Source of the DNA: a virus
Length of the DNA stretch: 64,000 nt
Direction: 5' to 3' (one strand)
IMG/VR virus record: IMGVR_UViG_3300029989_000005
Positions 27,433-53,437 of this stretch are shown piece after piece. The notes beneath the pieces were generated by a model. That model was given only the letters and a program-made list of their open reading frames with translations. It had not been told where the DNA came from and searched no databases. Position 1 is the first letter of the stretch; every line of letters begins with the position of its first letter. Made by a program: the position numbers and the translations under genes.

Positions 27433-28800
27433 ATGTCAAAATTCAAATCAATATCCCCAATAGATAGTAGATACCGTAAGGATGGTGTTATGCGTGAACT
27501 ATGTTCATACGAGAATCAGATAAACACAAAAATTTATTCTGAATTTCAATGGTTTCTCTTTCTTTGTGAAATTAATGGTATACCACCAAGTAATTCACAA
27601 CTTAATGAGCTATATTCACACCTTTTTAACAACTTAGAAAAATTTAATGCTTTTGAAAAAATAACAAAGCATGATATAAAAGCTGTTGAATATTATGTAA
27701 AATCTGTTGCTCAAAGTTCTGATTTTTACACATCAAAATCAGAACTTGAGGGTATAAAAATTATATCATACATACATTTTGGTCTTACAAGTCAAGATAT
27801 AGTAAGCCTATCATCAAATTCACTTTTTTCAAATATTTCTAATGAATTGATATTTAACATTACAATGTTATTGGACTCGTTACATAAAGTATTTTGTGAA
27901 AATTCTGTATTAATGATTGGATTCACTCACGGACAACCCGCTGTACCAATAAATTCAAAATTAATATACAAAAACTATAATAGTAGAATCTCATCTTTAC
28001 TCACCAATCTGACTAATATACAACCAAGTGTTAAGTTTGGTGGTGCTGTTGGTAATAATTCATCTATGAAACTAATAGGTATTACCAACATAGATGAATT
28101 AATGGATAAATTTATTAATGGGTTTACATCATTGAACTTGAGTGTAAATATGTCATTAAAACGTTCTGAGAATACTACTCAAGTTGATAATTGGGTATAT
28201 TTGGTTGATTTACTTAAAGAATATTTACAACTTGCATCAATATGTATTGATTTATGCCGAGATTTATGGCATTATTGTTCAATAGGATATTTGTATCAAA
28301 GTAAAGATGATGGTCAAATTGGTTCATCAACGATGGTTCAAAAAACTAATCCAATAGATTTCGAAAATTGTGAGGGTATAATGGAAAAGATGGAATCTGA
28401 TTTTTCATTTTATATCAAGAAATTTTCGAAATCAAGATTACAACGTGACCTGACTGATTCTGTTGCTATTAGAATGGTATTTGAAAGTTTCGCAATGTTT
28501 GATGTTGCCATAAATTCTTTACGTAGAGGCTTGTCTAAAACATCATTAAATGAAGAATTTATAACCAAAGAATTAGATAATCATTATGAAATGTCAGCTG
28601 AATATCTGCAGCTATTCATGAAAAATGCGGGATTACCCGACGCTTATGAAACAATATTCAATCGTCTGAAAGATACAAAGTTGACAGATAAACTTAGCTA
28701 CAGAAATTTTATTATTAAGCTTTATTCTGATTGTGTAATTAATAAGATAATGTATGATAAACTTATAAACTTTGACCTTAATGATTATAAAACATTTTAA
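27433..28800 (+). CDS. purB: Adenylosuccinate lyase
   Basis: ISPIDSRY, TKHDIKAVEY, HFGLTSQD, THGQPA, KFGGAVGN, GSSTMVQKTNPIDFEN, SRLQRDLTDS. Confidence 0.95.
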   Translation: MSKFKSISPIDSRYRKDGVMRELCSYENQINTKIYSEFQWFLFLCEINGIPPSNSQLNELYSHLFNNLEKFNAFEKITKHDIKAVEYYVKSVAQSSDFYTSKSELEGIKIISYIHFGLTSQDIVSLSSNSLFSNISNELIFNITMLLDSLHKVFCENSVLMIGFTHGQPAVPINSKLIYKNYNSRISSLLTNLTNIQPSVKFGGAVGNNSSMKLIGITNIDELMDKFINGFTSLNLSVNMSLKRSENTTQVDNWVYLVDLLKEYLQLASICIDLCRDLWHYCSIGYLYQSKDDGQIGSSTMVQKTNPIDFENCEGIMEKMESDFSFYIKKFSKSRLQRDLTDSVAIRMVFESFAMFDVAINSLRRGLSKTSLNEEFITKELDNHYEMSAEYLQLFMKNAGLPDAYETIFNRLKDTKLTDKLSYRNFIIKLYSDCVINKIMYDKLINFDLNDYKTF

Positions 28801-28812
28801 TATCAACTGATT

Positions 28813-29034
28813 ATGATTATTATTATATTATTGTTAGGAATTTTTATATTTATACCATTTATATCCACGTTTGTTTTGGGTTCTATAATTCTTTATAATG
28901 ATTTATTTCATAATATACCATATAAAGAATTATACAAAATAAATAAAGCTTTCAAGACCTCATATATATTTTTCTTATCATCATTAATTGTATTTATTAT
29001 TATCATTTTATTTTTAAATAAAATAAAATTGTAA
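28813..29034 (+). CDS. Small two-TM membrane protein
   Basis: Two hydrophobic segments; fills the gap and abuts the next start. Confidence 0.5.
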   Translation: MIIIILLLGIFIFIPFISTFVLGSIILYNDLFHNIPYKELYKINKAFKTSYIFFLSSLIVFIIIILFLNKIKL

Positions 29035-29735
29035 TGGTTACGCAGAAAGCTATTTCACCAATAACATATTTCTCAATAGAAACTAGACAGGAGATTGAAA
29101 TTAATGCTGATAAAATTATAGACTTTACAGATCAAATTTTTTCAAGCAAAAAGGCGGTTAATTTCAATCATAATGGAACTTTTATTATATCACCCGAATT
29201 TGAAGGTAAGCCAAATTTGGTATCATATGCATTATATACAGATCAAAATGTTGCCGATATAATGATGTTTTATAGTGAAATAAGCAATCCATTTTCTATT
29301 TCATCTGATATGATTGTTATGATGCCTGATATTTCTGATGCTGTTGGTGCTGTGAATTCTCAATCATCTGAGGTAACAAAGAAGAAAAAGAATAAATCGC
29401 AAATAGAATTTGCGAAGAACATTAATGTTCAAGACAAAAAGCGTGTTATGGAACTGATAAGACAAAGTAACCCATCTAGCGTTACTTTATCAGACATATC
29501 CAATATAAATGATGCGGGAATTAATACAAAAACAGGTAAGGTATCAACATTAGATGATTATATAAAATCACCCAACATGACAACATCTGATCAACTTAAG
29601 ATAATTGATGGGAAAGTTATATTGGGTGCTAATGTAAGTAGTAAAAAATGCTCTGATTCAGCAACAAAATCTCAGGGCTTATCAACATCAATAAGGCAAT
29701 CAATACTTGCTAAAATAAAAACAGGTGAAATTTAA
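29034..29735 (+). CDS. Baseplate wedge protein (T4 gp53-like/LysM-like)
   Basis: GKPNLVSYALY...DIMMFYSEISNPFSI...IVMMP. Confidence 0.65.
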   Translation: MVTQKAISPITYFSIETRQEIEINADKIIDFTDQIFSSKKAVNFNHNGTFIISPEFEGKPNLVSYALYTDQNVADIMMFYSEISNPFSISSDMIVMMPDISDAVGAVNSQSSEVTKKKKNKSQIEFAKNINVQDKKRVMELIRQSNPSSVTLSDISNINDAGINTKTGKVSTLDDYIKSPNMTTSDQLKIIDGKVILGANVSSKKCSDSATKSQGLSTSIRQSILAKIKTGEI

Positions 29736-29738
29736 ATT

Positions 29739-30176
29739 TTATTTTGATGTTCTTCCGTAATAAAACTCCAAAGTACTCTTGATGGATTTTCTAACATCCT
29801 CCATATCCAAATTGTTTATTATTATATCAATAATTTCCTCTTGCTTTAAATCCTGTTCGAACAAATCTAATAAAAATTTAAATGTTTTTTTATCGTAAAC
29901 CTGTAGATTTATTGTAGACTTTAAAGGAATCTTTGACTTCCTAGATAAAATTTCTATAATTGTGCTTTCAACCTTTGGTGTATTTTTTGTAAATTCCGAT
30001 TTAATCATATTTATTCCCTCTTGCCTCACAGGTCTGTCTTTCGGCTTCAACATTATATTATCTACCTTTGTTGAGTTATCTGTAACTGATATCTCACTAG
30101 TGGCTTTTAATATACCTTCCAATTCGGGGTCAAAAAAATTACTATCTTCTGTTTTAGTGCTTTCAGGGGTGTCCAT
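29739..30176 (-). CDS. Hypothetical protein
   Basis: 145 aa ORF. Confidence 0.6.
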   Translation of the reverse strand: MDTPESTKTEDSNFFDPELEGILKATSEISVTDNSTKVDNIMLKPKDRPVRQEGINMIKSEFTKNTPKVESTIIEILSRKSKIPLKSTINLQVYDKKTFKFLLDLFEQDLKQEEIIDIIINNLDMEDVRKSIKSTLEFYYGRTSK

Positions 30177-30275
30177 AATTTTTATACGTTTATATGTTTA
30201 TATGCTTAATTAAGTTATGTTTTCATGATTTGATACTATTGTAATAACGTGAATATAAATGTATAAAACAATAAT

Positions 30276-31406
30276 ATGATTACAATACCCGATATAAATA
30301 TTGTTATAGGTGATTTACATTTTGGTAGATATAGCAATGATCTGAAAGAGTTAGAAATATCACTTAACTATTTTAGAAAATTTATTTTGCCGATTCTTGA
30401 TAAGTTGAATAAAGCATATGGTGCTGAAAATGTTGGTATAATACAAGTTGGTGATGTATATGATAACAGATCATTAATTTCAACCGAAATACAAGATTCA
30501 ATACTCGATACGTTCGAAAAAATTTCTGAGCACAATATTGTTGTTGTTGATACGGGTAATCATGATAAGTTTAATCAAACAATAACAACAAATCGTGTGC
30601 TATCATACATAAGTAACTGTATTGTTGTAAGACAGCCTACAAGATTTTTAACAAAAAGCGGTAAAAAGGTATCATTCATCCCCGCAATTGAAAATAAAGA
30701 TGGATTAGCTGAGGTTATATCAAACGATGAATACGCTGATTATATGTTTGGTCATGATGATATAGCGGGATTTTCTCATGAAGGAATTATGGTAACCGAG
30801 GAAAAATCTATTAATATGTCACATTTTTCCAAGTATAAGCATGCTATCATCGGTCACATCCACAAGCCACAAGAGAACAAAAATATAGTTTATGTTGGTG
30901 CAGCATATCACACAAGGAAAAATGAGTGGGAAAACAAACCACAGATTATGATAATAAATATTGCCGATGAATCATTTAAATATATAGAAAATAATGTATC
31001 ACCAAAATATTTAAATGTATATCTTCCCGATTTATTGGATATGACTGTTACCGATGCAAATGATTTAATTAAAAATAACAGGGTTTCCGTGTTTGTTGAT
31101 GATTTTAATAGAATAAGTACAGTAAAGATAACTGAATTTCTTACAGGTTACTATTCACTTAAATATGAACAAAAAGTTGGTAAAATATATTCACAGAATG
31201 AAATAACTAATTCTGATGAAAATGTTGATTTTGATATAAATGATGATATCAAAGATATTATGTCAGAATACGTTACATCATTAGATTCTGTGATTATAGA
31301 TAAGAAGCTAATTCAAATTTCAGCGGTAACAAAGGATAAAATTATAAATAACCTTAACAAATTATATGAAATATCTAAAGACAATGTGAAAATGTTGGAT
31401 ATATAA
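30276..31406 (+). CDS. Mre11/SbcD-like nuclease (T4 gp47-like)
   Basis: Metallophosphoesterase motifs GDLHFG, GDVYD, GNHD, FGH, GHIHKPQ. Confidence 0.9.
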   Translation: MITIPDINIVIGDLHFGRYSNDLKELEISLNYFRKFILPILDKLNKAYGAENVGIIQVGDVYDNRSLISTEIQDSILDTFEKISEHNIVVVDTGNHDKFNQTITTNRVLSYISNCIVVRQPTRFLTKSGKKVSFIPAIENKDGLAEVISNDEYADYMFGHDDIAGFSHEGIMVTEEKSINMSHFSKYKHAIIGHIHKPQENKNIVYVGAAYHTRKNEWENKPQIMIINIADESFKYIENNVSPKYLNVYLPDLLDMTVTDANDLIKNNRVSVFVDDFNRISTVKITEFLTGYYSLKYEQKVGKIYSQNEITNSDENVDFDINDDIKDIMSEYVTSLDSVIIDKKLIQISAVTKDKIINNLNKLYEISKDNVKMLDI

Positions 31407-31449
31407 AAAGGAAAATTAACCATTATTAAACCATTTATTAATTACAGCT

Positions 31450-31815
31450 ATGCAAGAACTTATTAACAAATTAGCCAATTTAAAAAACGGTTTACAAGTC
31501 AAGAAATCTTTTAATACTCTCGATGAAATTTACAATAAAACGTATTTTACAGAGATGGTTAAGCATTTTGACACCACCATTTCTGAAATTTCTGAAGGTG
31601 TAGTAAACCGTTCTACCATTTCTCTGAAAATATTGGAGTATACATCATTAATTGATGAATTAATTGAAAAACGTAAGAAAATCGAGAATTTTAACGACAA
31701 AAATTCCACTATGGAAAGATCAAAGATCACGTCATACATTGATTTTTTAACTCAGCTCAAGGATGTTTTTAATGAAGAACTTGGTGAAGAATTAAAAGAC
31801 ACTTATAAAAATTAA
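31450..31815 (+). CDS. Hypothetical helical protein upstream of purZ
   Basis: 121 aa ORF ending 3 nt before the purZ start. Confidence 0.6.
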   Translation: MQELINKLANLKNGLQVKKSFNTLDEIYNKTYFTEMVKHFDTTISEISEGVVNRSTISLKILEYTSLIDELIEKRKKIENFNDKNSTMERSKITSYIDFLTQLKDVFNEELGEELKDTYKN

Positions 31816-31818
31816 TAT

Positions 31819-33222
31819 ATGTCACATTCAAAAACGCTTTTTAACCCCTTTTTTAAAGAAGGGAAAATTTCATTCATTATGGATGGGTTCGCTGGGAGTA
31901 GTGGAAAGGGTCTTTTAGCATCAAATTTGGTAAAATACAGCAATAATTGTAATTTTGCTGTTTCAACCAATGGTCAAAATGCATCTCATTATTATGAGGA
32001 AAAATTTCCTGATGGTACAGAAAAAATTATTTTATTCAAAGTACTTCCTACATCATCTGTTTATCATGAAAAACTTGATGCAGTATATGTTGCTCAGGGT
32101 GCTGCCTTTGAACCTCAAAGATTGCTTGAGGAAATTGAACTTACAGGTATACCACGTGGCAAGGTAAGAATTCATTACAAGGCGGGGATTATTTCCAAGC
32201 AAGACAGAGATTTTGAATCAGGTGTTTGTAATTACGAGGGTAAAGTTAACGAGGAACGCCAAAAGGGAACAGTTACCTCAGGTACAACCGCTAGCGGTGC
32301 GGGTTCTGTACGTGCCAAAAAATGTATGAGAAATCCTGATCAAAGGATTTATGCATATGAATATCCTGAATTACAGGATTTTTTGTGTGATACAGAACGT
32401 GAAATTATGGACAGACTTGATGCGGGTCAGTCAGGGCTTTTCGAAATTGCTCAGGGCTTTGCATTATCAAGTGGACTTTCATACAGTAAACGTAACACAA
32501 CGGCACGTAACTGCTCAATTACTGCAGCCATGGATGATGCAATGATTCCACCATTTTATGCGGGTAACGTATTTATTAACTTGCGTACATTCCCTATTAA
32601 AATAAACAATAAAAAGTGGGTTTTAAAAGGTGGTATTCAATATTATACTACAAATGAACTATCATTATCTGAGGTTAAGGCAAGATTTGATGAAAGGTTG
32701 TTTAATTTCGAAGATAATGAAGATTATTTGGTAAAAGTCATAACCAAAAAGGATATTTTCCTTACGGGATTTGATTTGGAAAAATACCCAAATATTCCAT
32801 ATGACGAAATTGATTCTTATTCTGGCGATTGGTATAGAAATGGATGGGAAAAACCCGAAACACAGGAAGAACTTACTTGGGAACAGGTTGAGGCTCAATA
32901 TGGTGGTGTGATTGATAAAAAAGCAATTTATACATCGCTTACTCTTATGCCAAGGAGAGTAGCCACATTCTCAAAAGAATTGCTTGTTGATGCAATAAGA
33001 TATAACAGACCATCTAAAGATTCTGAAATTTTTCTATCTTTAAATTTCTGTAATTGGCTTGATAAGGAGATTGAGGGTAAAACCAAATTAACTGATACTA
33101 CTCACAAAGTAATTGAGTGGCTTGAAAGCAATTTTGATGTTATCGATGAATTTGATAACGTATCACTTTCAATACTTGGAACAGGTAAATGGGTTGGAGA
33201 ATTTATTAGCTTTCCAAGATAA
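31819..33222 (+). CDS. purZ: PurZ-like 2-amino-adenylosuccinate synthetase (PurA family)
   Basis: P-loop GSSGKGLLA (Ser where PurA has GDEGKG Asp), NASH, SGAGS, TARN, RTFPIK, TSLTLMPRR (no PurA GR-RR Arg), LNF instead of TKLD. Confidence 0.75.
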   Translation: MSHSKTLFNPFFKEGKISFIMDGFAGSSGKGLLASNLVKYSNNCNFAVSTNGQNASHYYEEKFPDGTEKIILFKVLPTSSVYHEKLDAVYVAQGAAFEPQRLLEEIELTGIPRGKVRIHYKAGIISKQDRDFESGVCNYEGKVNEERQKGTVTSGTTASGAGSVRAKKCMRNPDQRIYAYEYPELQDFLCDTEREIMDRLDAGQSGLFEIAQGFALSSGLSYSKRNTTARNCSITAAMDDAMIPPFYAGNVFINLRTFPIKINNKKWVLKGGIQYYTTNELSLSEVKARFDERLFNFEDNEDYLVKVITKKDIFLTGFDLEKYPNIPYDEIDSYSGDWYRNGWEKPETQEELTWEQVEAQYGGVIDKKAIYTSLTLMPRRVATFSKELLVDAIRYNRPSKDSEIFLSLNFCNWLDKEIEGKTKLTDTTHKVIEWLESNFDVIDEFDNVSLSILGTGKWVGEFISFPR

Positions 33223-33239
33223 TACCTATTGATTATACT

Positions 33240-33276
33240 TTTGAAGAGGATAATTGTTATAATTATCCTCTTCAAA
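33240..33276. terminator. 16-bp hairpin after purZ
   Basis: tttgaagaggataatt / aattatcctcttcaaa. Confidence 0.6.
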
Positions 33277-33301
33277 TATATTTAAATAATAAAAAATTGC
33301 T

Positions 33302-34096: not shown

Positions 34097-34101
34097 AATT
34101 C

Positions 34102-35235
34102 ATGGCAAATATAATTAAAATACCAACAGAACCTATTGAACAAGTATTATCACAACCGTATAAAACTGACACGGTTGGATATTTTGTTAATATATTTAAC
34201 GGTAGGTCTAAAGCATCTAAACGAAAATTTAATTTTCCTGATAAAGGACAAGCGGCTCAATTTTATACTGATAATTCGGGCAAATGGAGAATAGATTTCA
34301 CGGATTTATCAGGTAATTTATTAGCTGATGAAAAAAGCTTGTTATTTGATTCAAGAGCTTTAGCATATTCACAATATGCTAAACTAATGAGCAAAAATAA
34401 GGAAGTTATAGAAAATACAGAGGATGATGTAGAGGATATAGTTATTGAACAACTTGAAAGGACATTTGAGCAATATCTCCCATCATTGGTAAAAAGTCAA
34501 CCAAAAAGAAAGTCAAATTTCAGTGATCTACCCAAATTTGATGATGAAGATGAAGATGAAGAACACGAAAAAGAACATGATGAGGATGTATTACAAGCTG
34601 AGGAAAAATACATACAGGCATCATCTATAGCACTTACAGAGGCAAAAAGCTTATTAGGCTCTATAGCTGAACTTTATATCGAAAAAGGTGTTATAGAAAA
34701 ATTTCCGTATTTCAAAAATAAATTATATTTTGAGGAGAATTCTATACAAATGATTCATACTCAAATGATGATTTCGCAGCTTGTGCTTAAGAAATTTTTT
34801 AAACAAGTAATTAAAAATCCTACAGCTAAAAACATTGAATCACTGTCTAAAATACAAATGTCACAATTAGCCTTGAGTAAATATCAAAGGGAATACTTGT
34901 CTGATGTCGAGGAATCTTTCAAAAAACTCAAGAAAGATTATGTTAATGGTGAATTTGTTAATCAGTCAGGAATAGAGGAAGGTGAGGTTATAATACCTGA
35001 TACACCTGTTTTCAATGATAGGAAAAAATTAATAATGGAGCTTTCTGAGGTTGTTGAAGCTGATGATTTAATACCTCTATCGCCCAATCAGAATTTAAGA
35101 AATAATATCAAAGATAATGAAAGAAACAGGTATGAAACATCGTTTAAAATTCACACTCAAAGTGAATCATCTAAAGACGAAGAAATACTTGTTGAAAAAA
35201 ACGCTGAGGATATATTTAGCAGCTTTATGGACTAA
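34102..35235 (+). CDS. Hypothetical protein, possible terminase small subunit (gp16-like helical core)
   Basis: Immediately upstream of the TerL piece; NPTAKNIESLSKIQ helical segment loosely like gp16 SPRHMEV. Confidence 0.35.
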   Translation: MANIIKIPTEPIEQVLSQPYKTDTVGYFVNIFNGRSKASKRKFNFPDKGQAAQFYTDNSGKWRIDFTDLSGNLLADEKSLLFDSRALAYSQYAKLMSKNKEVIENTEDDVEDIVIEQLERTFEQYLPSLVKSQPKRKSNFSDLPKFDDEDEDEEHEKEHDEDVLQAEEKYIQASSIALTEAKSLLGSIAELYIEKGVIEKFPYFKNKLYFEENSIQMIHTQMMISQLVLKKFFKQVIKNPTAKNIESLSKIQMSQLALSKYQREYLSDVEESFKKLKKDYVNGEFVNQSGIEEGEVIIPDTPVFNDRKKLIMELSEVVEADDLIPLSPNQNLRNNIKDNERNRYETSFKIHTQSESSKDEEILVEKNAEDIFSSFMD

Positions 35236-35239
35236 CACA

Positions 35240-36328
35240 ATGGGACTATTAGAAATTTTGGAAAAAACTTTAAATGCTATATTAAAAATAGTTATATTTT
35301 TAAATTATAATCTGTGGAAATATAAAGTTGAGGAAGACTGTATAATTAGTTCCTCTATTCCTAAAGATAATTTATTGGTAAACGGTATAAAGGGTGGTCA
35401 ATATTTATCGGCTGTCCATATTAAGACAAATGCCGAAATACTTAAAATAACTACTAAAAATGGATGCTTTGTAAAGTGTTCTGTAAATCATTTGTTTTAT
35501 GATTCAAATATGCAGATAATTGATGCTAATAACGTAACAAGGCAGACATTTTTAATCACAAAACAAGGAATATCACGTGTTGTAAAAGTAGAAAAATTAC
35601 CTAGACAATTTACTTTTGATGTTACAGTTGGTTCAGGAGAAATGAGTTATTTTTCTAATGATATACTGAGCCATAATTCTATTACATCAGGTATTTTTAT
35701 AATGTGGTATTTACTTACCAATTATGATAAAGGTGTCGCATGTACTTCGGCAACCGATGATAAAGTTAAAGAACTTATAGAAAAGATAGATACAATATAC
35801 GACAATTTGCCATTTTATATGAAACTTGGTATATGTGTTGATAATCAAAAGAGGAAAATATATGATAATGGCTGCTCAATAAAAGGTGAAACAGCAACAG
35901 AGAAAGCGGGTGCAGGTCTTACTGTTAACGGTATACTTTACTGTGATGAATTTGCACTGATTGACCCACAGGTATTAAAAATATTCTATCAAACTATTTT
36001 TCCAACAATGTCATCGTCAAAAACAGCAAAGATGATAATTACATCTACAGCAAGAGGCAGAAATTTATTTTGGCAATTGTACACTGATGGATTACTTGGT
36101 AAAAATTATTTCAATCCTATACGTGTAGATTGGTTTGATGTTGAGGGTAGAGATGATAAATGGAAACAAGAGGAAACAGCCAACATAGGTTCTGAGGAAG
36201 CATTTGAGCAAGAGTATGGAAATAGTTTTGATACCAATCAACAATTACTTTTGCCATCTGATGTTATGAAGTCATTAAAATCATATCAATCACACTTTAC
36301 AAATAATCGGCTTTCCAATGCATCTTGA
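35240..36328 (+). CDS. terL: Terminase large subunit ATPase fragment fused behind a split-intein C-half
   Basis: 146-aa IntC (CSVNH, FDVTV, YFSNDILSHN ending 35677), then +1 Ser SITSGIF (post-Walker A), Walker B LYCDEFA, motif ITSTARG, FEQEYG. Confidence 0.88.
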   Translation: MGLLEILEKTLNAILKIVIFLNYNLWKYKVEEDCIISSSIPKDNLLVNGIKGGQYLSAVHIKTNAEILKITTKNGCFVKCSVNHLFYDSNMQIIDANNVTRQTFLITKQGISRVVKVEKLPRQFTFDVTVGSGEMSYFSNDILSHNSITSGIFIMWYLLTNYDKGVACTSATDDKVKELIEKIDTIYDNLPFYMKLGICVDNQKRKIYDNGCSIKGETATEKAGAGLTVNGILYCDEFALIDPQVLKIFYQTIFPTMSSSKTAKMIITSTARGRNLFWQLYTDGLLGKNYFNPIRVDWFDVEGRDDKWKQEETANIGSEEAFEQEYGNSFDTNQQLLLPSDVMKSLKSYQSHFTNNRLSNAS

Positions 36329-36656: not shown

Positions 36657-36660
36657 AATT

Positions 36661-37185: not shown

Positions 37186-38664
37186 ATGATAAATTCAAAA
37201 CAAATATTTAATGACATGTCTATCTCCTATTTCAATGAAAATGGTGAAATAGACTTGGTTAATATTCCAATTTCAGATAGTGAAAAATTTGTTTGGGAGG
37301 AAGCAGGATTAGATGATAGATACAAACATCCTACTATAACATCTCAATTTGATAGACCCGTAAAAAAGATACGTAAAAATTATCTAACAAAATACAGGCA
37401 ATACGAATATATAAATAATTTACCACAGCATTTACAGGACAAAATATTTTCAGATAACAAGCCAAAGAAATGGTTTTGGGATATAGAAACAGAAACTGTT
37501 AATGGTGTGTATACCGAGGCATCCAATCCTATTGGTAGAATATTACTCCATACTATTTGTGATGAATATGGAAATGGTACTATATTTGGGATGAAGGAAT
37601 TGACGGGTGAGCAATTAAAAAGAATTGAAATAAAATTAAACGCTCATTTATCTAAAATATTGGATAAAAAAATAGTTAAACAAGTAAATCTAAAATACCG
37701 TCAATACAAAGATGAATACTCCATGAATTGCGATTTTGCCGTAAACTATATGAGCAAAATGTCTGTAATATTCGGTTGGAATGTTTTAAAATTTGATGCA
37801 CAATATTATTTTAATAGGTGTAAAAGAACAGGTATTGATTATGCAAAAATTATATCACCTGTAGGAAAAACATTTTCTCATTCGCTTTCTGATAAATACA
37901 ACAAAGAAAATAAAATAATATTAGATTTACCATTGCATAGACCAATTATTGATTATATGCAAATATTTGAATTCTTTGACCAATCTGTTGCGTATAAAAC
38001 ATCTATGTCATTAGGGTTTATTTCGAATGAGGTATTGGGTGTTACCAAAATTGAATACAATGGAAACTTACAAGATTTATACGACACAGATTTTGAGAAA
38101 TTTTGCTTTTATGGTATAACTGATGCTTTTCTTGTAGAAATGATTGACAAGAAAACCGATATATTTTCCTTGATGCAAACTATAACCAACATTGGAAAGG
38201 TTGATTTACTTTTGGGAACATCGGTTTCAATTATAATAGAATCAATCTTTAGTGATTATTATTACAAAACTTACAATAAGGTATTTATAAAAGAAGAAAA
38301 CATAAAAGAAGGCTATGCGGGTGCTTTTGTTGTTGAGCCAACAATAGGCTTATATGAATACATTGGCATTTATGACTTCGAAAGTCTTTATCCATCCATA
38401 ATGCAATTCCTAAATGTTGGTCTTGATACTTATATAGGTCAAACATATGACGATAAAACAACCGTTGTTACAAAAACAGGTGAGCAAATACCATATGATA
38501 AAAACACTATGATACGTGCTAACAATGGTGTAGTATATACAAGTGAAAAAGATGGATGTGTTAGAACTGTCATAGACAACTTGTTTACAAAGCGTGTTAA
38601 GGCAAAATATGCTAATCATGATATTGCTCATGATATAGAAGAACTTAAAAAATTAATAGCTTAA
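37186..38664 (+). CDS. Family B DNA polymerase, N-terminal part (exonuclease plus motif A); split gp43-like
   Basis: ExoI WDIET, ExoII GWNVLKFD, ExoIII YGITD, YAGAFV-EP, motif A YDFESLYPSI; stops before motif B (KxxxNSxYG). Confidence 0.9.
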   Translation: MINSKQIFNDMSISYFNENGEIDLVNIPISDSEKFVWEEAGLDDRYKHPTITSQFDRPVKKIRKNYLTKYRQYEYINNLPQHLQDKIFSDNKPKKWFWDIETETVNGVYTEASNPIGRILLHTICDEYGNGTIFGMKELTGEQLKRIEIKLNAHLSKILDKKIVKQVNLKYRQYKDEYSMNCDFAVNYMSKMSVIFGWNVLKFDAQYYFNRCKRTGIDYAKIISPVGKTFSHSLSDKYNKENKIILDLPLHRPIIDYMQIFEFFDQSVAYKTSMSLGFISNEVLGVTKIEYNGNLQDLYDTDFEKFCFYGITDAFLVEMIDKKTDIFSLMQTITNIGKVDLLLGTSVSIIIESIFSDYYYKTYNKVFIKEENIKEGYAGAFVVEPTIGLYEYIGIYDFESLYPSIMQFLNVGLDTYIGQTYDDKTTVVTKTGEQIPYDKNTMIRANNGVVYTSEKDGCVRTVIDNLFTKRVKAKYANHDIAHDIEELKKLIA

Positions 38665-39045: not shown

Positions 39046-40644
39046 ATGAATGACAAAGTACAAATAAAAACAGGTGCTGAGGCAAGAGATACGATACTTT
39101 ATGGTGCAAAACAATTATGTGATATTGTATCATCTACACTAGGTCCTGGAGGCAAAAACGTATTACTCAAGCATTTAAATGAAAGAATCATACAATCCAC
39201 AAAAGATGGTGTCACTGTTGCTAAATTTATAGAACTTGAAAATGAATGGGAAAACATAGGGTGTAACCTGCTCAAGCAATCATCAATGAGAACGGCATTA
39301 AATGCGGGTGATGGCACTACATCTACGGTTGTGTTTGCTTATGCACTTATGAAAGAGATAAATGAATTTTTGAAATCAAATCCTGATTTTAATGTTCATA
39401 AACTCCGTGATGATTTAAACAAATCAAAGGATTTGATGATTGAATATATTAAGGATCATTCAATAATTTCAAAAACAAATAAGGATATTAGAAACATTGC
39501 CATGATTTCTACAAATGGAGATGTTAGAATATCCGATTTGATTGCATCGGCATATGATAAATTCGGAAATGAACATGGAACTATAATGGTTGAACCATCA
39601 CCATCAACTGAAACATCAATAACTATACAAAGCGGGATTAAAATAGCTTCGGGATATTCTAGTTATATGTTCATGACAGATGTTAATAAGATGATTTCTG
39701 AGCTAACAGATTGTGGTATAATTATAACAGACCACAACATTTCAAAAGGCTCTGATATGTTAAAAATTCTTAGTATAGCCAATACCAATTATAAATCATT
39801 ACTTATAATTGGTGAGAATATTGAGGGTGAAGCTGTTCAGACTATGATTGCCAATCATATGAGCCAAAAGATGAAAATATGTTTGATAAAACCAACATTT
39901 TACGGTGAAAGAAGAAAAGATTATTTGTCAATGATTGCATCCGCTACATTAGCAACACCTTTTTATATTGAGTCTGGTACTAAGCTAGCTGAATTCAGTT
40001 CTAAGTTTATTGGCTCTGCTCAAAAAATTGTAGTGAGTAAAGATGAAACAAATATTCAAATATATGACATTAATAAGCCTAATCTTGATACAAAAATTTG
40101 TCAAATAGAGGAAAATATAAAGTCTATGATTGAAACAGGTTCACCCGAAGAGAATGAGGCTATTCAATGGAAACGTAATTTGCTATCTTTTGCAAAGGGA
40201 AATATAGCTACGATTAAAATCGGTGGTAATTCCGATACAGAAATTTATGAGGTAAAGGATAGAATTGATGATGCAATAGCTGCCGTTAAATCATCTATTG
40301 AGGAAGGTGTATCGGTTGGTGCGGGTGCATCATACATAAAGGCTGCTTATCAATTACCACCTTATTCAATTTCAGGCAATTTGATTAAGTCGGCATCGGA
40401 ATCAATAAAAAGAAAATTGTTAAGCAACTTGTGTATTTCCGATATTGATAAGCTGATTATAGATGACATATTAGATGACAATAATGGTATTAATATGTAT
40501 GGTGAATTAGCAAACCTTGTCGAGGATGGTATTATCGACCCAACAAAAGTAATAAGGAATTGTATAGAAAATGCTATTTCCGTAGCTACAATGTTTTTAC
40601 TTACCGACAATATAGCGATGAAAGTCGAGGACATCTTAATATAA
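39046..40644 (+). CDS. groEL: Chaperonin GroEL
   Basis: STLGPGGKNV, TKDGVTVAK, AGDGTTS, KDRIDDA--A, GIIDPTKV. Confidence 0.95.
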   Translation: MNDKVQIKTGAEARDTILYGAKQLCDIVSSTLGPGGKNVLLKHLNERIIQSTKDGVTVAKFIELENEWENIGCNLLKQSSMRTALNAGDGTTSTVVFAYALMKEINEFLKSNPDFNVHKLRDDLNKSKDLMIEYIKDHSIISKTNKDIRNIAMISTNGDVRISDLIASAYDKFGNEHGTIMVEPSPSTETSITIQSGIKIASGYSSYMFMTDVNKMISELTDCGIIITDHNISKGSDMLKILSIANTNYKSLLIIGENIEGEAVQTMIANHMSQKMKICLIKPTFYGERRKDYLSMIASATLATPFYIESGTKLAEFSSKFIGSAQKIVVSKDETNIQIYDINKPNLDTKICQIEENIKSMIETGSPEENEAIQWKRNLLSFAKGNIATIKIGGNSDTEIYEVKDRIDDAIAAVKSSIEEGVSVGAGASYIKAAYQLPPYSISGNLIKSASESIKRKLLSNLCISDIDKLIIDDILDDNNGINMYGELANLVEDGIIDPTKVIRNCIENAISVATMFLLTDNIAMKVEDILI

Positions 40645-46104: not shown

Positions 46105-46185
46105 ATTTAATACTATTTTTAGTTATTTATAAAACATTTGATTATTTTATAAAGCTGATAATATAAAATCAGATAATATAAAATA

Positions 46186-46452
46186 ATGAAAAACATGGAC
46201 ATGGATATAGAAAACAAAACTGAAAGCACTGAAAGCACTGAATTTCAAATAGGTCATTATACTGCACTTGTGTTGGCATACAGAACTATTGGTGTTTCTG
46301 TAGATATGAAAGATGCAATGCTTATTGAAAAGATATCTGACTTTATTAAAGGCAAAACAACTAAAGATATTAAATTGCATGATATTGATAATTTAATTAA
46401 AGAATCAAATCATGATTTCGAAAATATCGTGGTTAAAAATAAACTTGTATAA
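46186..46452 (+). CDS. Hypothetical protein
   Basis: 88 aa ORF heading the deaminase-gmk unit. Confidence 0.6.
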   Translation: MKNMDMDIENKTESTESTEFQIGHYTALVLAYRTIGVSVDMKDAMLIEKISDFIKGKTTKDIKLHDIDNLIKESNHDFENIVVKNKLV

Positions 46453-46454
46453 AT

Positions 46455-47468: not shown

Positions 47469-47472
47469 AGTC

Positions 47473-47955
47473 ATGTTTGGTAAAAAAATTATTTTAATAG
47501 GTGCGGGTGCATCGGGTAAAGACTTCTTAAGGAAAAACTTTCAGTATACTCTTAATTTTAAATTTGGCATATCTTGTACCTCTAGATTACCAAGAAATGG
47601 TGAAATCAATGGTGAGGATTATAGATTTATGTCAAAATACGATTTTAAAAGAAAAATTGAGCATGGTGAAATGCTGCAATACTCTGATTTTGGTAGTGCA
47701 TATTACGGAACATCAAGGGAGGACTTCAACGAATGTAACTTATTCATAATGTCACCTGATGGTCTTAAGCAGCTAACAAAAGAGGATAGAGATAAATGTA
47801 CAGTAATTTGGGTGAAATCAGATGAAGATATAATATACAAAAGATTATTGAAACGAGGAATGTCTGAGGAAAATATAAATGACAGACTTTTTGCCGACTA
47901 CAGTCTGTTTATGGAATATACAGACTTTGATTATATTATAATCAATAATGGTTAA
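47473..47955 (+). CDS. gmk: Guanylate kinase
   Basis: GAGASGKD, SCTSRLPRNGEINGEDYRF, YYGT, RLLKRG. Confidence 0.9.
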   Translation: MFGKKIILIGAGASGKDFLRKNFQYTLNFKFGISCTSRLPRNGEINGEDYRFMSKYDFKRKIEHGEMLQYSDFGSAYYGTSREDFNECNLFIMSPDGLKQLTKEDRDKCTVIWVKSDEDIIYKRLLKRGMSEENINDRLFADYSLFMEYTDFDYIIINNG

Positions 47956-48485
47956 AAATTGGTATCCGTGTTTTCACCTTTTGGGAAACTCGACTTTGGT
48001 TGTTGTGCTATTATAGTTGTTATAAATTTATCGCCTGAATCATTATAACCTGAACGGTACATTGAAAATTTTTTGCCTGTAAGAAATAAATTTTTAATGT
48101 ACCTATCATCTACTATAAACATTCTCCAACCCGACTTTTTTGCAAATCCTGTTTTTAGATTTTTAGATTTTTGAGATTTTGATTTGTGTCTAGCTAATTT
48201 ATCAGTTATGGAATCATCTTTTAATGTGTCTGATATAACATAAAATCTCATATATGTTACAGTTTCCCCTTTTTTATTTGTTCTGTAACCTATGGCATAT
48301 GGTTCACCAAACCTTGGACCGCTAGTGCCATCACCTGTTTTATCGGTATAATAAAAACTAATATATTGCCTTGTGTTAATAGCCTTTATAAGTTGATCTA
48401 ACTTCACAGAACCCATAGCCTCAAAAACAGGTTTGGAACTTACTTTTATAATAACATTATTTTCAGATAATTTTAAAGGCTTCAT
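47952..48485 (-). CDS. Stand-alone WYL-domain protein
   Basis: LIKAINTRQYISFYY...RFGEPYAIG...GWRMF--D-I. Confidence 0.7.
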   Translation of the reverse strand: MKPLKLSENNVIIKVSSKPVFEAMGSVKLDQLIKAINTRQYISFYYTDKTGDGTSGPRFGEPYAIGYRTNKKGETVTYMRFYVISDTLKDDSITDKLARHKSKSQKSKNLKTGFAKKSGWRMFIVDDRYIKNLFLTGKKFSMYRSGYNDSGDKFITTIIAQQPKSSFPKGENTDTNF

Positions 48486-48531
48486 TAATTTTTATTTTAT
48501 TTAAAAACATAACTTTAAATAAAATAAATCA

Positions 48532-50160
48532 TTGACAATGGATTTATCAAAAACATACGAGAATATCAAATCGGGTGGTGCTATTAATAAATTGCTTGGG
48601 GTAGATTCTTTATTTACCGATGTAGAAAAGAAAAGAAATGAGCAGGATAAATTTCTTGATAATGGCAAAGAAAGATTTTTCAATTCAAGTTTCAATTACA
48701 AGAAATCTAGGGGTGATAGTAATATTAAAAATAAGGACACTGTTGTATTAAAATATGCAGATGACCCTACTTTACTAGGATTTAAATTGATTCCAAACTT
48801 ATCAAGCCCGTTGTTTAATATTACTGTTGCTGATTCTAACGAAGAACAGGAGGAATCGGCATTTGCATATCTTTTATCAATAAATCAACAAGACAGAGCC
48901 AAAAAATTACTTAATTTTATTGAGTCTTTTAAACTTCTTGTACAGGAATATCCATATTATTTACAAGAATTATCGGGATTGGGTGATTTGTACAAAATAG
49001 AAGGGCATAGATCATATTATGAAAGGAAATTAAAAATAAAAACATATGAATCTGTAGACCTATTTATATCGGCAATGATGCATGATTACATAAATGCGGT
49101 ATATGATTTTACAGAACTTAAATGGGTAGTTCCTATAAATTTATTGTACTTCGATTTAATAATTTATATTTCTGAGGTAAGAAAATTCAAGACTGTATAT
49201 AACATAATTAGTGACAATTATCTTGATGATACTAATATAAATTATGTACTTGATAAAGATTCAATGTTTTTGCTTAACAAATATATAGGTGCTTATGCTA
49301 TTAGGTTTAATAAGTGTAGCTTTGAATCAGAGCATATAAATAAATACTTGTCGAATATAAGTAATCAATCTCCTAAATCACCCGAAAACGAAATAGGTAT
49401 GTGTCTTGGTAAAATGTCTTTTCATTTGACTAATTTACATCCATTTTCTCATGTTTATAAATATTATGATGAAATATACCCATTGGTTAATGATGTAAAT
49501 TATGACACGGAATCAGAACTAAATAGGTTTAATGTCAAGTCAGAACAATCTGACAAAGGTATATTTGATATGGCTCTTGATATAGTAAAAGAAGAGGCGG
49601 CTAAAACAGCAAACGGACTAATAAAGCAAGTTACAAGTAAAGTCGAAAACACCATAACTTTTGGAGTTTCCAAATTAGAAACTCTTGGTAAAGAAATAAT
49701 ATCTGAATATACACCATCTAATATAATTAATAGATTAATAGGTGATGAACTTGATAAGGTATCTAAAAATGTAAATGATGGGCTTAATAGTTTTATAGAC
49801 GATTTGGAAGCTAATTCTACTAACAAAACAGGTAATTTAAAAAGAAATGCCGATAATGAAAGGCTTGCATCACTTTTAATAAATCAAAACAATGTTATAC
49901 AGCCTACTTCCGACATTGTTAGTGATAATACTAATGTTATAAATACAAAAGGAGCTATCTCTGAGTTTATGCCTGATATTAAAAACATAAACTCAGGTAT
50001 CAAATCATTATACGCAATAAATTTAAAGGAAGAAACCAAGAAAGCACAAAATGAGGATTTGAGGAAGAAAGTACTTACCATGATCTTGGATGGTACTGAT
50101 GAAATTAAATTGTTAAGGGAAACCCTGTTTATTGGAAATACAAATCAAAAAATAAACTAA
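48532..50160 (+). CDS. Probable tail/baseplate structural protein
   Basis: DDPTLLGFKL, YLQELSGL, ESVDL, VPINLLYFDLIIYISEVR; tube-like beta pattern. Confidence 0.4.
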   Translation: MTMDLSKTYENIKSGGAINKLLGVDSLFTDVEKKRNEQDKFLDNGKERFFNSSFNYKKSRGDSNIKNKDTVVLKYADDPTLLGFKLIPNLSSPLFNITVADSNEEQEESAFAYLLSINQQDRAKKLLNFIESFKLLVQEYPYYLQELSGLGDLYKIEGHRSYYERKLKIKTYESVDLFISAMMHDYINAVYDFTELKWVVPINLLYFDLIIYISEVRKFKTVYNIISDNYLDDTNINYVLDKDSMFLLNKYIGAYAIRFNKCSFESEHINKYLSNISNQSPKSPENEIGMCLGKMSFHLTNLHPFSHVYKYYDEIYPLVNDVNYDTESELNRFNVKSEQSDKGIFDMALDIVKEEAAKTANGLIKQVTSKVENTITFGVSKLETLGKEIISEYTPSNIINRLIGDELDKVSKNVNDGLNSFIDDLEANSTNKTGNLKRNADNERLASLLINQNNVIQPTSDIVSDNTNVINTKGAISEFMPDIKNINSGIKSLYAINLKEETKKAQNEDLRKKVLTMILDGTDEIKLLRETLFIGNTNQKIN

Positions 50161-50161
50161 T

Positions 50162-50413
50162 ATGAACTCAGATTATTCTATATATAAGTCATTAAAACAT
50201 AGAAAAGATAATGTTAAAAATCTTGGGTATGATTATAGAGGTAATATAATGAAAAATTCTATTTCCAATATTATAAAAAATAGTAATAATCAAACTCTCC
50301 AAGATATATTAAAGCTTATAGACAGCTGCTTGGATTTTATGATTGTTGGTGTTAAGACTATTAAATCTAGAGTAAACATATGTGTTGATAAAGATACAGA
50401 CCTTATAAATTAA
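50162..50413 (+). CDS. Hypothetical protein
   Basis: 83 aa, tightly packed in an operon. Confidence 0.6.
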   Translation: MNSDYSIYKSLKHRKDNVKNLGYDYRGNIMKNSISNIIKNSNNQTLQDILKLIDSCLDFMIVGVKTIKSRVNICVDKDTDLIN

Positions 50414-50414
50414 T

Positions 50415-52037
50415 ATGGATAACGAATTATTAAAATCTATATTACCCGAAGACCTTTATCAAGAATTAGTTAACCTTGATAAAAACGTTGTGGAACTAGA
50501 TACCTGCAGGATTCCAAAAAATGGTGAACCTATTGATATATTACAAGGGTGTGTTCCTGTAATACCCAAATTCAACAATGTAAAAGATGTAAAAGGCATA
50601 AATGACATAATAAGTTCTATACTATCTGATTCACCGTTACTTAAAGATGTAAATTTAGACGAACAAAGGAAGAATTGTCTAGATATTATACAAACTGTAG
50701 CTTTAAACCTTTCAAAGGCAAGTTTAGATAGGTTGAATAAAAATCAATTAATACCTTTACAAAAAATATTGTTAAATTTAATAGAAATAACAATATACAA
50801 CACTATACTTGAAAAAAACAACAAATCACATCAATGTTTTAATTTATCTTTGAACTCTGATAATTATTACAGCCTTATTCCACGTATTAAAAATTATCAT
50901 TTACAATCAGGAATTAGGTCTTATGGCATACATGATATATTTGATGATATGATAAGGTCTGTAATTATTAAAAAGGAATATAAAACCACACAAAATACAA
51001 ATATATCTCATGTAATAAAATATTTTGTAGATTTAAACAAGTTGTCTGATAGTGATATAGGTGATGGAACTGTGGATATAAAAACTATAATATACACAAG
51101 GTTACTAACATTTAAAAATATTTTATTAGGTGTACTTGGTGAATTATACAAAACTGTCAATACTCCTTTACTACCACAACCACTAATTTATAATTTATCA
51201 TCGGGTATTATAAATACTTATTTTAATGGAAATATTTCTGAAATAACTAATAAAAAACTAATTTCGGGGATAAGTATAACGTTAAAGACAGATGATGAAA
51301 TAATTGAGTACTATAAATCTCTTAACACATCACTACAAAAAAACTTATCCGAATACTTTTCTATAATTGATATGTTTGATTTAGATCAAATCAAATATGA
51401 ACTAATATATGAATTATCAATTATTCCTTGTACAAGTTCAAATAAAGGATTTTATGAATCGGTAACAAATAACAAAGCTCAATATAAAGAAAATCTCAAG
51501 GATATTCCTATTAATTCAGATGAATACAATATATTCCTACCGACTTATTGGATGGTATGGACTACATATTTAAACTTAATATCATTGTTACCAAATCATT
51601 GGACTGTAGGATTTATAACACCCGTTGGTGCACCCGTTAAATTACCTATAATTTACATTCATTTGCTTACTATACCAATCGGAAGTACAAACATAGTAGT
51701 TTGGCTAACAATAAATGGTTTGGCTATAGCACCTGTTGTAATGGTAGTAGATGGTAAAACAAAATCAACTTGGGAAGTACTGTTTAGGGGTGGAAAGCAA
51801 CTAATAGAGGAGAGCCAAGGTTCTAAAACTGTACCAACAGGATTTAATTTACCTCAATATATAGGTGATTCACAAGCCGTTATTGACATTAATACTAACA
51901 TAACTGAAAGTGCACCAATGTTGGAAGATGCATTTCCACCAATGTATAGAATGTCACCGTTAAATCTTGTATTCTTAAAATTTCTTAATTCATGCTGTGA
52001 TAAAGGAAAAATATTCATGGGACTGATACCAATATAA
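50415..52037 (+). CDS. Hypothetical protein
   Basis: 540 aa ORF with a Pro/hydrophobic C-terminal region. Confidence 0.65.
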   Translation: MDNELLKSILPEDLYQELVNLDKNVVELDTCRIPKNGEPIDILQGCVPVIPKFNNVKDVKGINDIISSILSDSPLLKDVNLDEQRKNCLDIIQTVALNLSKASLDRLNKNQLIPLQKILLNLIEITIYNTILEKNNKSHQCFNLSLNSDNYYSLIPRIKNYHLQSGIRSYGIHDIFDDMIRSVIIKKEYKTTQNTNISHVIKYFVDLNKLSDSDIGDGTVDIKTIIYTRLLTFKNILLGVLGELYKTVNTPLLPQPLIYNLSSGIINTYFNGNISEITNKKLISGISITLKTDDEIIEYYKSLNTSLQKNLSEYFSIIDMFDLDQIKYELIYELSIIPCTSSNKGFYESVTNNKAQYKENLKDIPINSDEYNIFLPTYWMVWTTYLNLISLLPNHWTVGFITPVGAPVKLPIIYIHLLTIPIGSTNIVVWLTINGLAIAPVVMVVDGKTKSTWEVLFRGGKQLIEESQGSKTVPTGFNLPQYIGDSQAVIDINTNITESAPMLEDAFPPMYRMSPLNLVFLKFLNSCCDKGKIFMGLIPI

Positions 52038-52067
52038 ATAAATTAAAATAAATTAAAAATTAGAAAA

Positions 52068-52721
52068 ATGAAAAATCTAGCAAACAATTTTGTACTGTCA
52101 CGTGCAAAAATTAGCAATTCATCGATACAAGTTGGTGATTTGTACATTACACCTAATTTTGACGAAAACATATCTGATGAAATATTATCAGAGGTAGAAA
52201 GTATTGTCAGAAAAAACTTTACTAATGTAAGGCAATTAAACGGTAAATCTGTAAAGAATTTACGTCATTTATTTGAAGACAATGTTAAAACAACTCAATT
52301 TTTTATGGGTGCTCTGACATTATTGACGATAGATAAATGTAAATTTTATGTTGTTAACAACAAAACAGGTATACTAATGCCAACAATATCGGTTTTGGAA
52401 GTTCAATTTCCAACTGCTGAGGAGGAAAAAGTGGAAGCACCTGTTGTGGAAGCACCTGTTGTGGAAGAAGTGGAAGCACCTGTTGTGGAAGCACCTGTTG
52501 TGGAAGCACCTGTTGTGGAAGCACCTGTTGTGGAAGCACCTGTTGTGGAAGCACCTGTTGTGGAAGCACCTGTTGTGGAAGCACCTGTTGTGGAAGCAGT
52601 TAAGACAGAGGAAACCAAAGCACCTGTTGTAAAGCCCACAAAACCCACAAAAGTAGTTACTAAAAACGTTGCCGATGCTCAGAAGCAAAATGCAGCCAAA
52701 ATAGAAGAAAGCTTAAAGTAA
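52068..52721 (+). CDS. Hypothetical protein with VEAPV repeat linker
   Basis: Globular N-terminus plus low-complexity tail. Confidence 0.7.
   Translation: MKNLANNFVLSRAKISNSSIQVGDLYITPNFDENISDEILSEVESIVRKNFTNVRQLNGKSVKNLRHLFEDNVKTTQFFMGALTLLTIDKCKFYVVNNKTGILMPTISVLEVQFPTAEEEKVEAPVVEAPVVEEVEAPVVEAPVVEAPVVEAPVVEAPVVEAPVVEAPVVEAPVVEAVKTEETKAPVVKPTKPTKVVTKNVADAQKQNAAKIEESLK
52431..52598 (+). repeat. 15-bp tandem repeat, 10 perfect copies
   Basis: gtggaagcacctgtt x2, gtggaagaa, x8, then a partial copy. Confidence 0.95.
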
Positions 52722-52735
52722 AAACACAAATTTTG

Positions 52736-52778
52736 AACATAGATAAAGCCAAGGGTAACCCTTGGCTTTATCTATGTT
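52736..52778. terminator. 20-bp perfect hairpin
   Basis: aacatagataaagccaaggg-taa-cccttggctttatctatgtt. Confidence 0.65.
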
Positions 52779-52822
52779 TGACAATAAAAACTCATAATAA
52801 ATATAAAAATTAAAAGTTATAC

Positions 52823-53437
52823 ATGAAATATACTATCAAAACCACAGCAGAATTACTTGATATCACAAACCAATATAGTAAAAATAAGAATTTAGCTGTT
52901 GAGATTAAAGGGAGCAATTTGGTTATATATAAAACTAAAGTCATAAGGTTGTTTGGTATAGAACTTATAATTACCAAGACTTCATTAGCATCTGTTGAAA
53001 TATTACCATCTGTAAAAGATTATGATTATATAGAAACATATGTAAATTATGTTGGTCAGGAGATAATGAATAATAAATCAGGTAATAAAATTATTCTTGA
53101 TTTACTTAATATGTGTATGGGAAATTCCATTGAATCAAACGAGGTTTTAGGTCTTTTGCAGAAAAACGTATATTTCGGTGCACCATATGAGAAATGGAGA
53201 ATGATTGATGAACTTTCAGATAATTTATTTTACTATGTTGGTATAATGAGATTAGTAGGTACTAATTTCGAAGAGGTTATGGAAGCCAATATGGTTAAAC
53301 TGAAATCAAGATACCCTGACGGTAGGAAAAATTTGAATGTATTTGTGAATAAAAATAAGGAAAAAGAAAAAGAATTAATAAAAGAATTAATACAAAAAAA
53401 CGAAAAAAATGGAAAATCTGAAAACCCTGAAATTTAA
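52823..53437 (+). CDS. MazG-like (d)NTP pyrophosphohydrolase with N-terminal extension
   Basis: IESNEV...QK...DELSD-LFY...FEEVMEANMVKLKSRYP. Confidence 0.8.
   Translation: MKYTIKTTAELLDITNQYSKNKNLAVEIKGSNLVIYKTKVIRLFGIELIITKTSLASVEILPSVKDYDYIETYVNYVGQEIMNNKSGNKIILDLLNMCMGNSIESNEVLGLLQKNVYFGAPYEKWRMIDELSDNLFYYVGIMRLVGTNFEEVMEANMVKLKSRYPDGRKNLNVFVNKNKEKEKELIKELIQKNEKNGKSENPEI

Follow-up and report, generated by a model that had tools for sequence, protein, structure and literature searches.

Can a large, AT-rich phage of the T4 type make 2-aminoadenine (Z) nucleotides for its own DNA? The question is raised by a 64,000-nt stretch of virus DNA (IMG/VR record IMGVR_UViG_3300029989_000005), hereafter the window, whose G+C content is 29.2%. 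A sequence-only reading of the window had picked out a gene of the PurA superfamily with the signatures of PurZ, the synthetase of phages with Z in their DNA (Z-DNA). It had noted in the same window an adenylosuccinate lyase (PurB), a guanylate kinase (Gmk), a MazG-like pyrophosphatase and an ADA-family deaminase, and had proposed a candidate self-sufficient Z pathway. All five genes are on the + strand where they had been placed (Table 1). Based on the residues, phylogeny and fold of the synthetase, we find the PurZ-type assignment supported over a PurA-type one, as that reading had it, and we lean towards the view that the lineage of the window makes Z nucleotides for DNA by the route set out below.

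The long-form synthetase

Residues were mapped by alignment with named PurZ, PurZ0 and PurA sequences, with the sites taken from PMC8342488 and from the metaGPA preprint. Czernecki et al. 2021 name three PurZ-specific substrate-contacting residues (PMC8342488). The motifs quoted in the earlier reading, GSSGKG with Ser27, TSLTLMPRR and LNF, are all found in the translation, as G26-S27-S28-G29-K30-G31, T372-S-L-T-L-M-P-R-R380 and L408-N-F410. S27 stands at the position of the PurA catalytic Asp13 (S-2L S23, phiVC8 S14, E. coli Asp13). T372 is the equivalent of S-2L T273 and phiVC8 T262, the Thr of the aspartate-loop tip, which in PurZ accommodates the 2-amino group, and the loop reads T372-S-L-T375 where PurA has G-A-T-T. 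The GTP-selecting (N/T)KxD motif is replaced by N409-F-C-N412-W413, in which F410 corresponds to F306 and N412 to Q308/N297, and both PurA and PurZ0 have Asp at the N412-equivalent position. The claim that LNF replaces TKLD was correct in substance but displaced by one register, as the equivalent of the guanine-selecting Asp is N412. The catalytic and 6-oxopurine-phosphate residues are intact (N54, H57, T157, R171, Q212, T228 and R379), the aspartate-contacting loop is conservatively retained (T-S/T-L-T-K/L-L-P-R-R), and I262 is listed as a further key residue.

Searches with the whole protein agree with this assignment. The best phmmer matches in the PDB are phiVC8 PurZ 6fm1 (1.8e-13) and S-2L PurZ 7odx (3.4e-12), with P. 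horikoshii PurA behind them (1.2e-8) and bacterial PurA essentially undetected. In PHROGs the synthetase goes to phrog_1211, labelled '2-aminooxy adenylosuccinate synthetase'. The best-scoring NCBIfam family is the PurZ model NF038379, at 84.3 bits; for comparison, this model gives 397 for phiVC8, 367 for Wayne, 350 for S-2L, 241 for Ochrobactrum phage OH and 145 for Flavobacterium phage MaF61. A canonical PurA is not indicated: TIGR00184 gives 32 bits with a cut-off of 395, Pfam Adenylsucc_synt (PF00709) gives 25 bits, just under its gathering threshold (GA) of 27, and the protein has Ser27 and N412. The AlphaFold (AF2) model, made from a 115-sequence alignment, has a predicted local distance difference test score (pLDDT) of 95.4 and a predicted TM-score (pTM) of 0.93. 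Its top Foldseek match is again phiVC8 PurZ 6fm1 (E 1.6e-24, TM 0.83 on the target), followed by S-2L PurZ and then by P. horikoshii PurA and PurZ0.

A full scan of 1.84 billion representatives gave 810 relatives at E<=1e-3, of which 44 reached E<=1e-30. G-S-[ST]-G-K-G and N-F-x-N-[YW] are present in nearly all of them, and the loop consensus of the clade is T-[TS]-L-T. We built a maximum-likelihood tree of 83 rows, rooted on bacterial PurA and with no archaeal PurA among its rows. The window falls in a monophyletic long-form clade of 29 rows, with an ultrafast bootstrap (UFBoot) of 99 and an SH-like approximate likelihood ratio (SH-aLRT) of 95. This clade is sister to the group of phiVC8, S-2L, DMU1, ZP6 and OH PurZ, and PurZ0 branches below, so a phylogeny with PurA, PurZ and PurZ0, which the earlier reading had suggested, places the window within the Ser-type PurZ0 and PurZ radiation, next to classical PurZ. 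Forcing the clade outside PurZ0 and PurZ changes the log-likelihood by -35 lnL (approximately unbiased test, p-AU 0.035). When viral D-type enzymes were added, a short D-type group became the sister of the entire Ser-type radiation (support 100), and the long clade was still beside classical PurZ. Both groups that bracket the long clade make the Z precursor experimentally (PMC12884076), so it is simplest to infer that the long clade has the same chemistry by descent.

The long-form gene is found in viruses only, on 150-204 kb viral contigs and in MaF61, and was not found in a scan of 185,579 GTDB species genomes. The synthetase is also present on every large contig found via its portal gene, with portal identities that range from 73% to as low as 26-27%; no synthetase-negative relative, which would have given a presence/absence contrast, turned up in a portal-based search. 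Inteins that have LAGLIDADG or Hint domains are present in five homologues of 750-824 aa (P0010, P0015, P0019, P0024 and P0027), inserted at two sites, after about residue 148 and at about residue 220-235. The inteins and the presence of the synthetase on every portal-found contig suggest a core, replication-linked gene rather than a metabolic extra. The contigs of the homologues P0008, P0020, P0011, P0040 and P0047 are just 2-4.5 kb long and have no informative neighbours. In G001, the complete relative introduced below, there is also a weak second 'PurZ' match at 20321-21553 (E 0.009).

The synthetase can be compared with enzymes of the same superfamily that are paired with PurB in other viruses. 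A PurB profile search gave 68 viral loci, and 17 further PurB-bearing records were searched; 10 of the 17 have a PurA-superfamily gene, and in 8 of these the key columns were read. Three short enzymes, on contigs of 79-168 kb, have GDSGKG, G-A-T-T and N-K-x-D, and three others, one of them on a 465-kb contig, have GDEGKG, G-[AST]-T-T and [MT]-K-L-D, in each case the full PurA state. The enzymes of the window, MaF61, G030 and G034 are fully in the Z state at each of the three sites, and none of the 20 tabulated sequences mixes the two states. Because the viral PurA enzymes that are paired with PurB keep the PurA residues, we read the three-site change in the window as a discrete switch and not as decay. 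On large viral contigs, the pairs of PurA-type enzyme and PurB look like an ordinary auxiliary module for AMP synthesis.

Accompanying genes and the proposed route

In the proposed route, the long-form PurZ-type synthetase would join dGMP and aspartate with ATP or dATP as the phosphate donor, and phage PurB would then remove fumarate from the succinylated intermediate to give dZMP. Phage Gmk would convert dZMP to dZDP, the host nucleoside diphosphate kinase (NDK) would convert dZDP to dZTP, and the phage family B polymerase would insert dZTP opposite T. Pool control, that is, supply of dGMP and lowering of dATP, would be carried out by MazG-domain and HD_3/YfbR-like hydrolases, with the ADA-family deaminase added in some members. 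The substrate of every enzyme in this route, including the dGMP of the synthetase, and the presence of Z in virion DNA are predictions from sequence.

The window is collinear with positions 90-157 kb of G001, a CheckV-complete IMG/VR contig of 167,485 bp, at roughly 70-75% nucleotide identity, and we used G001 as a proxy for the remaining genome of the window's phage. Gene co-occurrence was counted in seven CheckV-complete relatives of 150-167 kb that have the long-form gene. PurB is present in six of the seven and Gmk in all seven as well as in MaF61, so the synthetase is indeed accompanied by phage-encoded PurB and Gmk. The window's PurB scores 272 bits on NCBIfam PRK09285, below the cut-off of 446, and retains the loop region S-S-x-M-P-x-K-x-N of the fumarase superfamily (alignment A7); Gmk scores 92.6 bits on TIGR03263, where the cut-off is 160. 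As had been stated, the genes are not clustered in the window, where they spread over 26 kb. On the 204-kb contig L029, PurB is 0.5 kb from the synthetase, and synthetase, PurB and MazG-like gene are all within 6 kb.

The MazG-like gene is likewise present in all seven complete relatives. Its product has an ExxE...ExxD motif at E104/E107/E130/D133, shows no similarity to MazZ-1 or MazZ-2 by phmmer, and has no PDB match. Its MazG match in Pfam is weak, and the protein is not a relative of MazZ. The deaminase has the HxH, HxxE, H and D motifs, with SDG where ADA has DD, and its PDB matches include ADA and the AMP-level ADAL/MAPDA enzymes. The SDG motif and the ADAL-like matches are compatible with a nucleotide-level substrate. 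Only 4 nt separate the end of the deaminase gene from gmk, which makes co-transcription of the pair probable. It is found in only two of the seven complete relatives and is absent from MaF61. It is an accessory gene and not a conserved part of the gene set.

The family B polymerase is split. The C-terminal part (profile positions 153-390) is encoded in G001 by a separate gene at 89660-90487 on the - strand, just upstream of the window start, and the two parts are ~42 kb apart; G002, G003 and G005 have their polymerase divided in the same way, and MaF61 has a single unsplit gene of 995 aa. PolB is present and PolA absent in all five relatives searched (four of the seven complete genomes were checked), in agreement with the expectation of a family B replicase and not DpoZ. 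No NDK turned up in the four complete genomes and the single partial record of relatives that were examined, and the last phosphorylation would thus still be the host's, so that the term self-sufficient was overstated. For removal of dATP, a possible candidate is an HD_3/YfbR-like protein of 210-368 aa, which belongs to the Pfam families of DatZ and is conserved in G001 (5065-5847), G002, G003, G005 and MaF61. This gene is located outside the part of the genome covered by the window. In MaF61 the gene and gmk are 1.5 kb apart and its product passes the Pfam HD_3 threshold, and the protein matches PDB 2gz4 at 1.9e-14. DUF550 (PF04447) had no match in the relatives, and the controls were equally silent.

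Table 1. Positions of the genes discussed, with the matches or residues on which each assignment is based
Feature	Location	Strand	Basis
Ribonucleotide reductase (deoxynucleotide supply context)	20391..22400	-	phrog_367, 2e-105
Adenylosuccinate lyase PurB, 455 aa	27433..28800	+	Lyase_1 4e-22, ASL_C 2e-19, both above GA
Long-form PurZ-type (succino-amino-deoxyadenylate synthase-like) gene, 467 aa	31819..33222	+	PurA superfamily
Split family B DNA polymerase, N-terminal part	37186..38664	+	DNA_pol_B 1.7e-13, profile positions 34-136 only (also given as 34-140)
GroEL-type chaperonin, phage-encoded	39046-40644	+	phrog_5725, 1.8e-101
ADA-family deaminase, 337 aa	46455..47468	+	Pfam A_deaminase 1e-27
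Guanylate kinase Gmk, 160 aa, proposed dZMP/dGMP kinase	47473..47955	+	Pfam Guanylate_kin 2e-21
MazG-domain nucleotide pyrophosphohydrolase-like, 204 aa	52823..53437	+	Pfam MazG 25 bits (GA 22); phrog_229 2e-18
PurA-type + PurB pairs in other viruses	IMG/VR records G026-G029, G031, G033 (loci L153-L157, L160)		Asp, GATT, NKxD/TKLD

The remaining genes of the window are a T4-type set for replication, recombination and packaging: a Dda-like helicase, portal, gp41-like helicase, UvsX, SbcCD, ribonucleotide reductase, large terminase, SSB, GroEL and the N-terminal part of the family B polymerase. We propose that the lineage of the window consists of AT-rich, T4-type myophages of ~150-200 kb. Its hosts are probably Bacteroidota, to which an open reading frame (ORF) of G001 points (L007 5979-6449), as it has a type IX secretion sorting domain (Por_Secre_tail, 2.8e-12). 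The label 'jumbo' was not confirmed; given the length of G001, which is collinear and complete, the window's phage is large and not jumbo on present evidence. No near-identical phage records were found by megablast. The same DNA is present in many 2019 peat metagenome runs, in each of them as contigs, a form of data that does not reveal base modification, and no RNA runs are listed.

Other features of these genomes can be noted briefly. Both GroES- and GroEL-like genes are also found in MaF61. The large terminase region of the window (34102-36328, + strand) consists of two overlapping ORFs of 377 and 403 aa, and Terminase_6N and a faint intein signal are found in the second of them only. A 219-aa ORF at 13113-13772 on the - strand has an intein-splicing match of 27 bits, which is below threshold. 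A dUTPase was found in G001 and G002; that of G001 is canonical (151343-151735, 100 bits). The corresponding place in the window, at ~56,900-56,995, is only a short intergenic gap, and the window's phage is thus without a dUTPase there.

Weighing the explanations

Several observations count against a Z-making synthetase and route. The score of the synthetase does not reach the NF038379 cut-off of 300 bits, and an archaeal-type PurA model gives it 81 bits, nearly the same as the PurZ model. An insert of ~85 aa at about residues 264-345, which is well folded in the model, comes directly after I262. At the equivalent position, a loop of PurZ has a Val pushed against C2', which disfavours ribonucleotides, and the insert beside this ribose-discriminating loop could change the choice of sugar or substrate. 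Ala stands in place of the aromatic residue (F12/Y21) that precedes the P-loop Gly-Ser. Viral PurB also accompanies PurA-type enzymes, so the pairing is not Z-specific; PurB alone is no Z marker, and we dropped it as one. One of the complete relatives, G002, is without PurB. Deamination of Z nucleosides back to G by the ADA-family enzyme is conceivable in principle. No homologues of DatZ, MazZ, DpoZ or PrimPol were found in the window (phmmer E<0.1), in G001 or in MaF61, as the earlier reading had already seen for DatZ in the window, and there is no orthologue of NDT/DmtZ in the relatives searched. The HD_3-like protein aligns to DatZ at the HD motif only, with an hhalign probability of 6.8%. 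On the other side of this last point, an HD_3/YfbR-like hydrolase elsewhere in the relatives weakens the worry that there is no dATP-removal enzyme: looking for datZ and mazZ beyond the window via the relatives, as had been recommended, gave no orthologues but did give dispersed, divergent MazG-domain and HD_3-like genes.

Ordinary purine salvage is one other explanation. Here an IMP-using, PurA-like synthetase and PurB, with or without the deaminase, would carry out AMP synthesis or a purine-nucleotide cycle, which would provide more adenine nucleotides for a 71% A+T genome, and the DNA would be canonical. PurA-type and PurB pairs are known in other large phages, including the one of 465 kb. 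The synthetase scores below the curated PurZ cut-off and near-equally on the archaeal PurA model, Foldseek does not distinguish between PurZ and P. horikoshii PurA, and DatZ and DpoZ were not found. However, the true viral PurA-type enzymes keep Asp, G-A-T-T and NKxD, while in the enzyme of the window each of these three sites is in the PurZ state. Conservation of Asp13 reaches 99% within the PurA clade, and the residue is Ser in 100% of the phage PurZ-group sequences (PMC12884076); the long-form clade is nested in the PurZ0 and PurZ radiation. The deaminase that the cycle needs is missing from five of the seven complete relatives. We consider salvage unlikely. It is also rather unlikely, if a little less so, that the synthetase has PurZ chemistry and the virion DNA is nevertheless mostly canonical, because of partial substitution, a ZTP ribonucleotide pool, or manipulation of the host dGTP and dATP pools. 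The missing dATPase orthologue and Z-selective PolA would fit such a case, as would the insert, which could relax deoxy-specificity. S-2L, however, achieves full replacement with a non-selective polymerase and pool control (PMC8342488, PMC8065100), and genes for Gmk, MazG-domain and HD_3-like proteins are conserved beside the synthetase.

Avoidance of 4-bp palindromes might seem to favour mostly canonical DNA, as GATC is still strongly avoided in the window (63 observed, 203 expected), while CCGG, GGCC and GCGC have 0 occurrences each; in G001, GATC is observed 84 times, with 561 expected. But GATC is avoided just as strongly by phiVC8 (4/152), which is a proven Z phage, so palindrome avoidance is non-discriminating and we rejected it as a test of modification. 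The main text of the restriction endonuclease (REase) paper does not mention GATC enzymes. A further explanation is that the long-form clade has a new reaction, using another 6-oxopurine nucleotide or another amino donor to make a different modified purine. The clade is distinct and deep, has two clade-specific inserts (the one after I262 and one of 12 aa near residue 140), has NASH for NAGH and K-I for R-V as well as the Ala before the P-loop, and scores below the family cut-offs. The aspartate-contacting loop is nonetheless kept conservatively, the Ser and Thr that accommodate the 2-amino group are retained, and PurB, which is specific for removing fumarate from succinyl adducts, co-occurs. 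A new reaction therefore seems to us very improbable. Replacement of dG of the type known from Campylobacter phages was dropped, given a synthetase of PurZ type and no similarity to those phages.

Significance and comparison with known systems

The route to Z-DNA can also be put as a wider claim, that a T4-type Bacteroidota myophage lineage including MaF61 replaces adenine with 2-aminoadenine. The lineage would use for this a long-form PurZ not recognised before, PurB and Gmk of its own, a family B replicase, and pool-clearing enzymes that are not orthologous to the known ones (MazG-domain and HD_3-like proteins, in some cases also an ADA-family nucleotide deaminase). We regard this wider claim as evenly balanced. 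In the literature that we searched, no PurZ-type gene is described in myoviruses, nor one together with a phage PurB. The characterised Z-DNA phages in the papers that we consulted have genomes of ~40-80 kb, are mostly siphoviruses or podoviruses, and use either a Z-selective PolA or PrimPol with DatZ (PMC8342488, PMC12884076). Two recent surveys begin from PF00709, and because this model scores the long-form clade at or below threshold, surveys of this kind likely miss it. If the wider claim is true, it would be the first Z-DNA in myoviruses and in genomes of >100 kb, with a T4-type replisome and its family B polymerase, and would extend Z-DNA to Bacteroidota hosts, to peat and lake habitats, and to a very AT-rich genome in which about 35% of the bases would be Z. 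It would mean that PurB and Gmk, steps supplied by the host elsewhere, can be virus-encoded. It would also mean that a Z-DNA system was assembled independently, with another independent assembly of pool control ('functional convergence') and with new enzymes for making Z-DNA.

Classical PurZ, as in phiVC8 (6FM1/6FKO/6TNH), S-2L (7ODX) and Acinetobacter phages, has the same fold, gives the best PDB match and forms the sister clade. It shares with the window's enzyme the Ser for Asp, the Thr-rich aspartate loop and the ATP pocket N-F-x-N/Q-aromatic. Identity is 22% to phiVC8 PurZ in the Foldseek alignment and 29.8% to the best classical match, Ochrobactrum phage OH PurZ, by tblastn, and the window's enzyme is ~100 residues longer. 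The known PurZ genes are in sipho- and podoviruses of ~40 kb, in a purZ-mazZ-datZ cluster and with DpoZ or PrimPol, whereas the window's PurZ-type gene belongs to T4-type myophages of 150-200 kb with PolB, their own PurB and Gmk, and no such cluster. The PurZ0 enzymes of Arthrobacter phage Wayne and of Gordonia phages (7VF6) are in the same superfamily and share the Ser for Asp13 and a TTVT-type loop. They retain the guanine-selecting Asp of a GTP donor type, whereas the window has Asn, the ATP type, and is on a separate branch. PurZ0 phages carry DutZ/DmtZ (PMC12884076), and NDT is absent in the window's relatives.

The viral PurA and PurB pairs, for example that of IMG/VR 3300023174_000033 (465 kb), are of the same superfamily and likewise have a viral PurB, but their PurA enzymes retain Asp, G-A-T-T and NKxD/TKLD, and in the tree they fall with PurA of bacterial or of short archaeal-like type. 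The closest comparison is with MaF61 (PQ858689), whose ORF141, 'Putative adenosuccinate synthetase', belongs to the same clade as the window's synthetase and is 35.5% identical to it across 97% of the length. Neither these genes nor DNA modification are taken up in the MaF61 paper. As a cultured member of the clade, whose host is Flavobacterium sp. B330, MaF61 makes the Z question directly testable. It differs from the window in its 37% G+C, its unsplit PolB and the lack of an ADA-family gene, and it shares the three-site signature in a 168-kb myovirus genome with PurB, Gmk, and HD_3 and MazG-domain proteins.

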